From Escherichia coli (GTDB lineage: Bacteria; Pseudomonadota; Gammaproteobacteria; Enterobacterales; Enterobacteriaceae): a stretch of 64,000 bases of DNA. A program made the position numbers. The DNA is taken from assembly GCF_017348835.2 (NCBI RefSeq), contig NZ_CP071375.1. One strand, 5' to 3'. This document shows, piece by piece, positions 3,201 through 9,200 of the stretch; position 1 is the first letter of the stretch; each line of letters begins with the position of its first letter.

Positions 3201-6200
3201 TGTCGCACTAACGCGGCAACGGTGGCGGTGATTCAGGACGCCCTGAAATCCTGTGGCTTACCGGCGGGTGCCGTGCAGGCAATTGATAATCCTGACCGTG
3301 CGCTGGTCAGTGAAATGCTGCGTATGGATAAATACATCGACATGCTGATCCCGCGCGGCGGGGCTGGTTTGCATAAACTGTGCCGCGAACAGTCGACGAT
3401 CCCGGTGATCACAGGTGGTATAGGCGTATGCCATATTTACGTTGATGAAAGTGCAGAGATCGCTGAAGCATTAAAAGTGATCGTCAACGCGAAAACTCAG
3501 CGTCCGAGCACATGTAATACGGTAGAAACGTTGCTGGTGAATAAAAACATCGCCGATAGCTTCCTGCCCGCATTAAGCAAACAAATGGCGGAAAGCGGCG
3601 TGACATTACACGCAGATGCAGCTGCGCTGACACAGTTGCAGGCAGGCCCCGCGAAGGTGGTGGCTGTTAAAGCGGAAGAGTATGACGATGAGTTTCTGTC
3701 ATTAGATTTGAACGTCAAAATCGTCAGCGATCTTGACGATGCCATCGCCCATATTCGTGAACACGGCACACAACACTCCGATGCGATCCTGACCCGCGAT
3801 ATGCGCAACGCCCAGCGTTTTGTTAACGAAGTGGATTCGTCCGCTGTTTACGTTAACGCCTCTACGCGTTTTACCGACGGCGGCCAGTTTGGACTGGGTG
3901 CGGAAGTGGCGGTAAGCACACAAAAACTCCACGCGCGTGGCCCAATGGGGCTGGAAGCACTGACCACTTACAAGTGGATCGGCATTGGTGATTACACCAT
4001 TCGTGCGTAAATAAAACCGGGTGATGCAAAAGTAGCCATTTGATTCACAAGGCCATTGACGCATCGCCCGGTTAGTTTTAACCTTGTCCACCGTGATTCA
4101 CGTTCGTGAACATGTCCTTTCAGGGCCGATATAGCTCAGTTGGTAGAGCAGCGCATTCGTAATGCGAAGGTCGTAGGTTCGACTCCTATTATCGGCACCA
4201 TTAAAATCAATAAGTTACACATCATTAGTACCTTCCTTATTTTTTGACTGGGACAAATTTGGGACCGATGGGTTCAGGATCGAGTCTATTTGCCGTGCGT
4301 GTTCGGTAAGGTGATTAGGTGCAAGGTGAGCATATCGACGAACCATTTCGATAGACTCCCAGCCTCCCATTTCCTGTAAAACTGACAACGGGACTCCGGC
4401 TTGAACCAGCCAACTTGCCCAGGTGTGTCTCAAGTCGTGAAATCTGAAATCATCAATACCAGCCCGTCTCAGCGCCGCTTTCCAGGCTGTGTTTGCGTCA
4501 TACCGCATCTTCCTTACTGTTGGCGCTTTCGTTCCGTCTGGTTTGGTACAGCTTTCCTTGTACACAAATACCCAACGGTGATGATTCCCGATTTGTTTTT
4601 TCAAAACGCGACATGCAGTATCATTCAGCGCAACGCCAATTGCGCGGTTTGATTTACTCTCTTCCGGGTTTATCCATGCCACCCGGCGCTGCATGTCTAT
4701 TTGTTGCCATTCAAGGTTGATGATGTTCGAGCGTCTTAAGCCTGTTGCCAGTGCAAATTCAACAACAGACTTTAATGGCTCCGGACATTCATCAATCAGC
4801 CTTTGTGCTTCATGGGGCTCCAGCCAGCGGATCCGTTTATTCTTTGGTTGAGGCACTTTAATAATTGGTGCCTTATCCAGCATTTTCCATTCACGCTCTG
4901 CGGCTCTTAGTAGGGCCTTTATAAATGAAAGATGCGTAGCCTTCGTTGCAACGGACGCTGGTTTTGGCGTGTATTCTGGAACAGGTTTCCCTTTTTTTCT
5001 GCATGCTTCTGCCCTGAGTCTCCAGTTTTCCTCATGACGCCGGTTCGTCATTTTCTGCATTGCTGAATAAATTTTTGATTCAGTAATGTCTCTTAGTTGC
5101 ATTCCTGCGAAATGTTGAAGCCAGAATCCGATCCGGCTTTTGTCATCGTCCAGTGATTTTTTATGTGCTTTCTCTTCAAGCCACCTGACACACGCTTCCT
5201 CGAACGTTATATCAGGTATTTCACCAAGTTTGCTGACCCGCCATGCTTCAGCCTTTAGCTTGTCATGGAGTTCTGTCGCCTGCCTTTTGTCCTTTGTTCC
5301 AAGAGACTGTTTAAATCTTTTACCGTTCGGCAATGTGAAACTGGCGTACCATATTTCACCTCTGCGGAAGAGTGACATTTTCTTTCCTCTGTTATGCCAT
5401 CACCCGCGCTCACCTGGACAGTATGCAGCGGAGACTGAAGAGCCGCAATGCAGGCTTGTCGTGTTGTGAGGTAAGGAGATTTATTCTTAGTGGGATCTTT
5501 GCGTGTTGCCTGAAGACGCCCTGTGCGTATCCAGTTAATGGCAGTCGGTCTGGATATCTTGAGAAAATGACAGGCCTCATCGAGTGTGAGGCTGTATGGC
5601 TCCATTATTTCACCTCTTGCTGTGACATTGTTGAAAAATGGATACCAGCTCGTTGCTGCCAGACGATCCAACCGAGAGTCATATCCCATGCCATGTATTC
5701 GTTATCGCCGTTTTTTGCTCTCCGACGATCTACTAAGTCACCGAAACGCTTTTCCATGAATAATTCATAAGCTTCGCGTTCATCTGGCTCTACTTCCAGA
5801 GATAGGAGTGCGATTTCATAAGCACGGCGCTCAATATCGTCTCGCACGTCAAGGCTGCTGATACGCTCTTTAATTTCTTTAATCAGTTCTTTGTCGGTAA
5901 AAGTGGTCATTATGCTCCAGCCTCCGGTGCTTTTGGCATTACTGCCCAGTGAGTGATATTGACGTTTTCAAGGTCCCCAACCTGAAATGTCCACTGCCAT
6001 TCTCCGGTTTCTTTTTGTCCCCAGGTGTACCAGAGAGAACGCCAACCAATTAGCCAGCCTTCTCCGTTAGCATCGAATAACAAAACACTTTCATTTGCTG
6101 GTGGCAGTTCAGTTGACACTGGTATTACTTTGTTTTCCTGTGCTGCACATTTAGCTTCAAGCGCATCGAATTTACGCACCAGGTATTCAGCATCTGTTTC

Positions 6201-9200
6201 ATTTACTTTCAGATCTCGCGGTACACATCTCCCACGAAGAAACCCTTCCATTTCGAAAACATTCATGCGCATTTGCGTAACTCCGATAACTCGTTAAAGC
6301 GTTCCATAAACATCCCGTAGGCATGGCCCGGTGCCAGTGGAATCACGTTGAACATCTCTGTTGCCGGGATACCTTCCAGTACAGGCCAGAAAGAGCCATC
6401 ATCAAGCCCGAGATCGCGGCGTTCGGTTGCCAGCATGATGAGATCGGCATATTTCACGGGCGTACTCATAACTGGGGGTAACCCGTATTTCTCACGGATT
6501 ACGGCGTCTATTTTTTCTTCCATTTGTTTATAGTCAGGAAGAAGGCGTTTCAGTGGTGCGGGAATGTCCTGGCAATTCGCTTCTGTTGCATCATGCATTA
6601 ACGCTTCAAAAGCAAATTCCTGCGGCACCAACTGGCTGCAAAGAACCGCATGTTGGGCGACGCTGTAGAAGTGCGAAAGATGACCGGCAAAGCGACAGAT
6701 ATTTGAAAGGGAAACCGCGATATCGTTAATATCGATGTCGTCTTTATTTATCCTGTCATAATAAAAATGCTTCCCGGAAAAAGTTTTAATAAATGACATT
6801 TTGTTCTCCACGTATATGCGCTGCACCGCGCTGAATTTTGGTTAAAGAAAACCCTCGCCATCAGGCGATTATTGAGTTAATTACGTTTCTATAAATGCCC
6901 CCGCAGGGGCATTTGCAGTAATGAAATCAGGCGGTGAAAGTACCAATAAAGGTTTCTACTTTGCTGTCTTTGAATTTTTCAACAAGCAGATTACGAAATT
7001 CGTTAGCCATTTCTTCCTGTACTGCTTCCAGCTGAATAATGCGCAGAACCAGTACAGGGCGATCACCAGTGATAATGCTGAGGCGTAATTTAAACGGACG
7101 TTCTTTCAGGCCTTCAAACGGAACGCATTTAAACTCAAATGCTACTGGCATAATGTCTTTAGTTTTCGCTTCGACAGACTCCATCAGAGAGCGTTTGCCG
7201 CTGAAGTCATTGTCTTCAAAATCAGCGGTCTGGTTTGCTTCAATCGTGATTTTACGGACCGCCGCAGCCGCTTTTGTTGCCTGAATGGCGTCACCATTAG
7301 CATCAAAGCCCACAAGGTAGTCGGCCCAGTCTTCAATCCATTCTGCCAGTGACTTCTGGGAGTTACGCTCGCCGTTAACAGACAACAGGGCAGAGAACGG
7401 TGCTGTCTTTTTCAGTTTGAGAGTGGCGGTGTTATCTGCGTGACCTGGTTCATCAATAGTACCCAGGTTAAGCACACTGACGGCTCGCATATTATCAGCA
7501 TCGATAAAGCAGCGGGTGCCTTCATCTGCAAGATCTTTAGAATAACGGATAAAGTCATCGATGCTGGCAGTGGAAAGCGCACCACGGAAACGGAAGCGAT
7601 TTAAATTAAATTTTTCCAGATCATGAATGCGGAAATTCTCAGGCAATGCCACAGCATCGGCACCAATCTTACTGATAATTTCATTAACACTCTGAGCAGA
7701 AATAAGGGCATGGATTTGATTAATTTCGGTTGCGTCTAAGTTCTGAGACATAATAAGTCCTCACTATATAAAGATATTCAGTGATGAGATAAATAATCAG
7801 TTAATTAAGAACGATATTAATGACCTGCTGCGCGGAGTTTTCCGTCAGGTTCACCGGCAAGAGTCAGTAATTGTCCCTGGTCTTCCTGCAGAATAGTCAG
7901 GCGACCACCGCGATTGACATACATCGGTGTTTCGGTGGTGTCTTCTTCGGAAATTTTCCCGCGGTTAGTCGGGCGAACATATGAGAGTTTGTGTTTGATT
8001 TTCACACGGTTCTCATCAAATGGTTCGATTTCCAGGTTGAGCGAGACCTTACCTTTGGTTTTCGTGTTCATCACACCGGAAGCGACTTCACTGAGAACTG
8101 CGCCGATTTTGGTTTCAAATACGCCGCCGTCCAGCTCCCCGATAAATGCCTGCACATCAGTACTGCGTTCGCTAGCCATTTTGCTGCTCCTCATCATATC
8201 GACCCTGCAAGGTCGGTTATCGCACGGCTGGAAGCAGAAGGCTGGTTAACGCGTAAGGCGCGTCGCCAGGGTAACGGCTGGGAGACGGCGACAGAGCTTG
8301 TTGAAGATACGCAGGCCATTCTCCGTTACGGTCGTAACGTCACGAAGATGGATGCCTTTGGCTGTACCAGCCGGGGGCAGGCGCACCGCGCCGGGCTGTG
8401 GCTGATTAAAACGGAACTACTGGAAACGCAGACCGTGGACTTCAGCGTGGGTGCGGAAGGGCTTCGCCATGTGCCGGGCGATGTCATTGAAATCTGCGAT
8501 GATGACTATGCGGGGATCAGCACCGGCGGGCGCGTGCTGGCGGTGAACAGCCAGACCCGGACGCTGACGCTCGACCGTGAAATCACGCTGCCATCCTCCG
8601 GTACCACGCTGATAAGCCTGGTTGACGGAAGTGGCAATCCGGTCAGCGTGGAGGTCCAGTCCGTCACCGACGGCGTGAAGGTAAAAGTGAGCCGTGTTCC
8701 TGACGGCGTTGCCGGATACAGCGTATGGGGGCTGAAGCTGCCGACGCTGCGCCAGCGCCTGTTCCGCTGCGTGAGTATCCGTGAGAACGACGACGGCACG
8801 TATGCCATCACCGCCGTGCAGCATGTACCGGAAAAAGAAGCCATCGTGGATAACGGGGCGCACTTTGACGGCGACCAGAGCGGCACGGTGAATGGTGTCA
8901 CGCCGCCAGCGGTGCAGCACCTGACCGCAGAAGTCACCGCAGACAGTGGGGAATACCAGGTGCTGGCGCGATGGGACACACCGAAGGTGGTGAAGGGCGT
9001 GAGCTTCCTGCTCCGTCTGACCGTAACAGCGGACGACGGCAGTGAGCGGCTGGTCAGCACGGCCCGGACGACGGAAACCACATACCGCTTCACGCAACTG
9101 GCGCTGGGGAACTACAGGCTGACAGTCCGGGCGGTAAATGCCCGGGGGCAGCAGGGTGATCCGGCGTCGGTATCGTTCCGGATTGCGATGATTAATCCTG

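Follow-up and report, generated by a model that had tools for sequence, protein, structure and literature searches.

The yfdPQRST module beside the thrW integrase of an Escherichia coli chromosome: a likely recent leftover of an SfV/cdtI-type prophage

The prophage genes yfdP, yfdQ, yfdR, yfdS and yfdT are best known from CPS-53 (KpLE1), a decayed prophage of Escherichia coli K-12. A plasmid carrying yfdP to yfdT suppresses over-initiation in hda-185 mutants (Noguchi & Katayama 2016, PMC4776307). In multicopy, the minimal inhibitory set consists of yfdQ and yfdR together with either yfdS or yfdT, while yfdP is dispensable; purified YfdR binds DnaA in a manner that depends on Phe-46 in domain I of DnaA; and replication from oriC in vitro is inhibited in extracts with an excess of YfdQRST (PMC4776307). 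Multicopy yfdQRST also raises hydroxyurea resistance, and YfdR is presented there as structurally homologous to the nucleotidase YfbR, with a much lower affinity for nucleotides (PMC4776307). Citing the homologues in Shigella phage SfV, the same authors suggest a phage-era role like that of lambda P (PMC4776307). Here we analyse a 64-kb stretch of an E. coli chromosome (contig NZ_CP071375.1; hereafter the window), in which an earlier note had described five minus-strand genes at 5605-8197, beside an integrase, as a largely uncharacterised prophage operon. Across this region the window is 100% identical to E. coli PE164, a pig isolate, and the RefSeq annotation of that strain was used. We consider it likely that the locus is a recent, silent leftover of a thrW prophage of the SfV/cdtI type, whose early-left genes probably served to manipulate host replication in the phage.

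A looser parallel is found in the exo-xis region of phage lambda (orf61, orf63, orf60a, orf73 and ea22), which likewise occupies a promoter-distal position in the early-left operon beside xis. When expressed, the exo-xis genes are reported to inhibit host DNA replication and to have effects on the cell cycle. No sequence relationship to the module was found, however, and the mechanism is not binding of DnaA by YfdR, so that the comparison is an analogy only.

Identity and proposed role of the module

Identified by their sequences, the five genes are the already known and named yfdPQRST prophage module and not an unstudied operon. The products are 99.2, 97.8, 97.2, 95.8 and 96.0% identical to K-12 YfdP, YfdQ, YfdR, YfdS and YfdT, respectively, over their full lengths, and the DNA is collinear with the K-12 cluster (96.3% identity over 2,647 bp; blastn). 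The description as largely uncharacterised therefore does not hold, because the cluster carries names and is 96-99% identical to a copy with published genetics and biochemistry. The similarity to SfV is still closer: the proteins are 98-100% identical to the products of orf32 to orf28, and three of the five, those of yfdP, yfdS and yfdT, are 100% identical to orf32, orf29 and orf28. At the DNA level the module shares 98.3% identity with SfV and SfIV across its whole 2,593 bp. At least 80% of its length is covered in 38 phage records and in 1,941 of 5,426 complete E. coli genomes; at an identity of at least 95% it is present in SfIV, the cdtI phage, many Stx2c phages and others. The carriers thus include Stx-, Cdt- and serotype-converting phages.

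In the intact elements examined (SfV, cdtI and the thrW prophage of E. coli strain A0 34/86) a cI-like repressor is followed, after a few hundred bases, by yfdP-yfdQ-yfdR-yfdS-(yfdT or a variant), xis and int. This position between repressor and xis-int indicates that the genes form an early-left operon, and a 2025 survey of lambdoid phages reports that a yfdR/yfdQ/yfdP cluster is common in such operons. The int-to-yfdP segment of the A0 34/86 prophage is 99.8% identical to the window, which keeps the int-proximal half of the lambdoid early-left arrangement. The SfV-type phages (SfV orf28-orf32, SfIV, and cdtI orf35-39) agree with the window in the type of int and xis and in genome position. 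They differ in what precedes the operon, namely the repressor, terminators, and orf33 with its upstream region, all of which are deleted in the window. CPS-53 shares the five genes, their order, their orientation and their spacing, and both loci are marginal leftovers of a decayed prophage that adjoin an excisionase. The K-12 element nevertheless resides at argW and not at thrW, and its xis and int differ from those described here (no similarity to TorI).

In the intact phages, the genes are transcribed away from the cI-like repressor as the early-left operon. YfdR would bind domain I of DnaA and thereby compete with DiaA and DnaB, and YfdR and YfdQ together with YfdS or YfdT would damp initiation at oriC. 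Both activities, DnaA binding and inhibition of initiation, are presumed for the window proteins by analogy with K-12 proteins that are 96-98% identical, and we infer that manipulation of host replication was their natural role in the phage. A weak 5'-deoxyribonucleotide phosphatase activity of YfdR may be additional or vestigial. Among the functions that we weighed, an early-left modulator of host replication ranks first, a nucleotide-pool enzyme second and a recombination function low.

Deletion junction and retention of the genes

Alignment with A0 34/86 and SfV places the end of the native sequence about 40 nt upstream of the yfdP ATG, at window position ~8220. What remains of the upstream region (8180-8219, minus strand) comprises the ribosome-binding site and a 16-nt palindrome, CGACCTTGCAGGGTCG (8215-8200). 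Beyond ~8220 lies the interior of the tail-tip gene J on the opposite strand, and other thrW prophages match the window only up to 8219. The junction (8219-8221), at which the yfdP leader is fused to J, is also evident in RefSeq, where the J remnant is labelled a tail tip pseudogene with a missing N-terminus. A 301-bp probe detected this yfdP|J junction in one of the 5,426 complete E. coli genomes, PE164 itself, and between thrW and the junction (4,120 bp) the window departs from the intact A0 34/86 prophage at five positions. Since the junction is found in a single genome and so few differences have accumulated, the deletion appears to be recent and private to the strain. A single illegitimate event probably fused the 40-nt leader of yfdP to the middle part of J. 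The genes for immunity, replication, lysis and most of morphogenesis are gone, which together with the junction bears out the earlier view that most of the prophage is deleted.

The same deletion also removed the candidate early promoter. The sigma-70-like site that scores best in A0 34/86 (TTGACA-16-CATAAT, 11/12 matches) lies ~620 nt upstream of yfdP and directly follows the terminator of the repressor gene; this region is deleted in the window. A minus-strand consensus scan of the antisense J sequence now lying upstream of yfdP returned only chance-level sites (9/12). The genes yfdP to yfdT are thus probably poorly expressed here, and it is from these observations that we infer their silence.

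A second breakpoint is known close to the one described above. Homology to K-12 CPS-53 ends at ~8198, about 19 nt upstream of yfdP as opposed to about 40 nt in the window, so that two independent breakpoints lie within ~21 nt of each other and flank the palindrome. In these mosaic phages, the region upstream of yfdP may mark a border between modules or act as a hotspot of recombination.

Survival of the five genes in a largely deleted prophage had been read as a sign of host benefit, for example through superinfection exclusion or phage defence. For this strain the argument fails, given the unique junction, the five substitutions over 4,120 bp, the missing promoter region and the outcome of a PADLOC-DB 2.0 search, in which none of the six proteins tested matched a defence family at E <= 0.01. 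Because the segment is nearly identical to the intact prophage, there has been too little time for decay and retention is uninformative; the genes would be intact simply because the deletion is recent and they lie between its endpoint and attL. On balance, retention in this strain does not demonstrate a host benefit, and none is required to account for it, although one may exist.

The substitution pattern was considered at two time scales. The ratio of non-synonymous to synonymous substitution rates (dN/dS) is about 0.10 both for the window against K-12 and for the window against SfV, and such low long-range values are expected anyway because the genes circulate in active phages. After the divergence from A0 34/86, one synonymous and three non-synonymous changes arose in the five genes. 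The latter (YfdQ G21S, YfdQ T68I and YfdR Y75N) are all derived in the window lineage and are not present in the K-12 CPS-53 copy. With omega at 0.1 and the site counts of the long-range comparison, at least three non-synonymous changes among four would occur with a probability of about 0.06 (binomial, our own arithmetic), a value that hints at relaxed constraint without reaching significance. Disabling changes in relatives, which the earlier note had named as contrary to its idea, are also seen: an O157:H7 remnant consists of yfdR and a yfdQ that has lost its 5' half, fused to a truncated J, with yfdP lost. Another O157:H7 prophage, at thrW, carries int-xis-yfdT-yfdS-yfdR without yfdQ or yfdP.

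Several points weigh against the interpretation of the locus as a silent leftover of a replication-modulating operon. The effect on DnaA was obtained only with multicopy plasmids, deletions of the genes have no initiation phenotype, and an overexpression artefact is conceded as possible by the authors (PMC4776307). The absence of a promoter is read from a consensus scan alone, and a weak site inside the operon (6895-6868) or read-through could give expression. The count of one synonymous to three non-synonymous changes is too small for significance, and recent divergence inflates dN/dS generally. All five genes are likewise intact in CPS-53, which lies at argW, is separate and older, and has a different breakpoint; this could be due to selection. 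A K-12 yfdS deletion is sensitive to H2O2. Deletions of yfdQ have been reported to be weakly sensitive to methyl methanesulfonate and H2O2 (PMC4776307).

The independent preservation in CPS-53 and the lowered H2O2 survival of the yfdS deletion would fit a domesticated module, in which selection keeps the genes for stress tolerance, control of replication during stress, superinfection exclusion or defence. The same can be said of the hydroxyurea resistance conferred by multicopy yfdQRST, of the occurrence of the module in 1,941 E. coli genomes and of the low dN/dS. However, prevalence and low dN/dS are expected from circulation in functional phages. The uniqueness of the junction, the near-identity to an intact prophage, the loss of the candidate promoter, the mostly non-synonymous recent substitutions, the lack of defence-family matches and the O157:H7 remnants that lack or truncate yfdP and yfdQ likewise argue against domestication, which we regard as improbable at this locus.

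Gene products and the YfdP-YfdQ pair

The five co-oriented minus-strand genes beside the integrase are confirmed, each with strong PHROG, Pfam or homologue support. Following the direction of transcription, yfdP (7817-8179) is recognised by its identity to K-12 YfdP and SfV orf32, and its start follows from homologue alignment: the ATG at 8179 (MASERS) has the ribosome-binding site GAGGAG in front of it and is the start that 28 homologues and RefSeq also support. The product therefore most likely has 120 amino acids (aa) and not the 126 aa that result from reading the frame to 8197, as had been proposed. The genes yfdQ (6927-7751; 274 aa) and yfdR (6263-6799; 178 aa) follow, the latter starting at ATG 6799 and not at GTG 6826, which would give 187 aa. 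They are succeeded by the yfdS orthologue (5910-6272; 120 aa; phrog_583, 1e-82) and by yfdT (5605-5910; 101 aa; phrog_660, with identity to K-12 YfdT and SfV orf28). The acidity noted earlier for the 101-aa protein is real (isoelectric point 4.8) and not special, as it is common to all five proteins (4.8-5.7). Overlapping stop and start codons, claimed for the whole operon, occur at two of the four internal junctions: yfdR/yfdS overlap by 10 nt and yfdS/yfdT by 1 nt (TAATG), whereas gaps of 65 nt and 127 nt separate yfdP from yfdQ and yfdQ from yfdR, respectively.

The 127-nt spacer between yfdQ and yfdR (6800-6926, minus strand) was examined by RNA folding, consensus scans and Rfam. It has a predicted folding energy of -40.8 kcal/mol (z = -3.25 against shuffled controls) and contains two hairpins, one with a 9-bp GC-rich stem at ~6914-6893 and a terminator-like one at 6868-6855, whose 5-bp stem is followed by a T-rich tail. 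The weak promoter-like site at 6895-6868 lies here as well. The spacer is conserved, and its hairpins suggest that the transcript is attenuated or processed between yfdQ and yfdR. A match to the whole Rfam small RNA STnc100 at 6756-6935 was rejected (21 bits against a threshold of 47), and the usual Fels-1-type neighbours of that RNA differ from those found here.

YfdR was the product for which the earlier note proposed an HD-domain phosphohydrolase acting on host nucleotide pools. The protein matches phrog_318 (5.5e-110), and its H...HD...D site is intact, with H50, H69-D70 and D119 aligned to an HD protein of known structure (PDB 2gz4, Atu1052; 6.6e-14). The protein shares its HD fold and metal site with E. 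coli YfbR and the HD 5'-deoxynucleotidases. It differs from YfbR in its reportedly much weaker nucleotide affinity, in the additional DnaA-binding activity, and in reaching these profiles only below threshold, with 23.9 bits against a cutoff of 25.9 for Pfam YfbR-like and 20 against 122 bits for the NCBIfam 5'-deoxynucleotidase equivalog. By these profiles the window protein is of the YfdR type and not of the YfbR type. The proposed identification thus stands with respect to the metal-binding residues, while the Pfam YfbR-like cutoff is missed and start and length had to be corrected. As a side observation, Y75N (codon 6575-6577) lies five residues past the HD motif at a position that is Tyr in K-12, SfV and A0 34/86.

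Could YfdR act primarily on nucleotides? It would then dephosphorylate deoxyribonucleoside 5'-monophosphates and shift the host supply of deoxyribonucleoside triphosphates for the phage or against competitors. The intact metal site, the likening of K-12 YfdR to YfbR, and the PHROG and RefSeq names (deoxyribonucleoside 5'-monophosphate phosphatase / 5'-deoxynucleotidase) make this plausible. The two missed cutoffs argue against it, as does the requirement of yfdQ and of yfdS or yfdT for the replication phenotype, which goes beyond a simple phosphatase. Given that the affinity of YfdR is reportedly far below that of YfbR and that its demonstrated partner is DnaA, an effect on nucleotide pools appears secondary, and as the main function it is unlikely.

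The remaining annotations differ in their support. YfdS just reaches the Pfam cutoff for DUF551 (22.2 against 22 bits), in a marginal match spanning residues 50-117 at the C-terminus. YfdQ gives a full-length DUF2303 match (310.4 bits against a cutoff of 26.6; 1.2e-92) that covers profile positions 2-269 of 269. YfdP has no match in our local Pfam copy, and a cluster of 99%-identical homologues carries PF27127 YfdP. For YfdT no Pfam or PDB relative was found, and sequence and profile searches of the PDB returned nothing for YfdP, YfdS or YfdT. In the PDB searches the sole relative of YfdQ was 9o7m, which contains 36 copies of a chain 99% identical to the YfdQ homologue of Xanthomonas phage MET23-P3, one of the CP2-like phages.

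At E <= 0.001 the YfdQ family comprises 1,476 clusters (50% identity). At all 15 fetched loci with a full-length YfdQ homologue, the gene directly upstream, in the same orientation, encodes a YfdP homologue. Distant homologues (38-57% identity) account for nine of these loci, on metagenomic phage contigs and in MET23-P3. Outside the enterobacterial lambdoid set, YfdR accompanies the pair in a single contig only. Gene tables of Vibrio phage VvAW1 and data on Burkholderia phage JC1 fit the pairing. The early regions that carry the pair are those of enterobacterial lambdoids, CP2-like phages of Xanthomonas, Vibrio phages and podophages of Burkholderia. This invariant adjacency of yfdP and yfdQ in very different phages is a new point.

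In MET23-P3 (9571-14706) a single early operon contains yfdP-yfdQ, two genes for proteins of 401 aa and 116 aa without assigned function, Erf, an 81-aa protein, a YqaJ exonuclease and SSB. On one metagenomic phage contig (222-3135), the pair lies in a gene string with SSB and a protein with an Acb2/Tad1 hairpin domain, a family of anti-CBASS/anti-Thoeris sponges. There is a hint that the neighbourhood of the pair collects counter-defence genes.

One reading of these data is that YfdP and YfdQ form an obligate two-protein unit, independent of YfdR, that would be a new kind of device for early host takeover or counter-defence, with the inhibition of DnaA in K-12 as a side-effect only. It is prompted by the large homo-oligomeric assembly that YfdQ homologues can form (36 chains in 9o7m), the detection of a DUF2303 protein in virions of Burkholderia phage JC1 and the lack of structural relatives, as AlphaFold2 models of YfdQ and YfdP gave no informative matches in fold searches. 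We offer it as a speculative proposal with a small chance of being correct, and nothing in it is specific to the remnant in the window.

Another reading concerns recombination or DNA ends. SfV-type early-left operons have no recognisable recombinase, and YfdP-YfdQ, with or without YfdR, might replace a Red/Erf-type module in SfV, ST64B and LLS. The location of the pair just upstream of Erf, the YqaJ exonuclease and SSB in MET23-P3, and near SSB in VvAW1 and in the metagenomic contig with the hairpin-domain protein, would be compatible with such a role. On the other hand, MET23-P3 itself possesses Erf, exonuclease and SSB alongside the pair, and the literature, which considers the role unlikely, notes the cluster also in phages whose Rec module is complete (ArgO145). 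The fold searches, moreover, revealed no relation to a single-strand annealing protein or to a nuclease. We therefore consider a cryptic recombination function highly improbable, and modulation of host replication by the early-left operon remains the preferred reading.

Surroundings of the remnant and meaning of the locus

The local order is phoE, proB, proA and thrW, followed on the minus strand by int, xis and yfdT-yfdS-yfdR-yfdQ-yfdP. The tRNA-Thr (CGU) gene thrW (4125-4200, plus strand; ARAGORN; Rfam tRNA, 71.8 bits) is the attachment site of the prophage and marks the attL side. The tyrosine integrase gene int occupies 4215-5378 (4215-5333 in RefSeq; Pfam Phage_integrase, 3.5e-48), and the excisionase gene xis, encoding 116 aa, occupies 5255-5605 (phrog_2907 excisionase, 1.3e-50; Pfam HTH_17). 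Read directly from the sequence, the stop codon of yfdT overlaps the ATG of xis by 1 nt. Because xis and int are translationally linked to the five genes, the co-oriented unit comprises seven genes.

On the plus strand beyond yfdP, and outside the operon, lie the 3' part of a lambda-J-like tail tip gene (8221-9874; Pfam Ig_J, Ig_GpJ_C and Phage-tail_3; RefSeq), lom, a tail fibre gene (stf), tfa and the IS3 element. In the tail fibre gene, which RefSeq splits into a pseudogene and a separate coding sequence, an 87-nt direct repeat at 10741-10959 (80% identical, 132-nt spacing) encodes a repeated motif. The remnant is closed by the IS3-family element (13363-14576), after which come inverted fragments of prfH and rtcB and then yafP-dinB (region 13363-15209). 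In other strains, prfH, rtcB and yafP-dinB are found on the far side of pepD-gpt-frsA-crl-phoE-proBA. This arrangement implies an inversion or rearrangement associated with the insertion sequence, together with loss of attR; a second copy of the thrW 3' end, as expected for attR, was found nowhere in the 64-kb window. Since the right side ends in this way and no second thrW 3' end is present, the remnant cannot excise.

Farther along the window, HicAB and DinJ-YafQ toxin-antitoxin pairs are located at ~19700-21900, and fragmented RHS-repeat genes with orphan toxin and immunity modules (AHH domain, imm11, SymE) at ~29500-37000. The positions of these features were transferred from the annotation of PE164 in RefSeq.

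By itself, the locus matters little, as it is an ordinary leftover of a common and named phage module. It does provide a caution: genes that survive beside the integrase of a gutted prophage are the default result of internal deletions, and reading such survival as domestication needs population evidence. Although roughly one in three complete E. coli genomes has the module over at least 80% of its length, the YfdP, YfdQ, YfdS and YfdT families represent a real gap in mechanistic terms.

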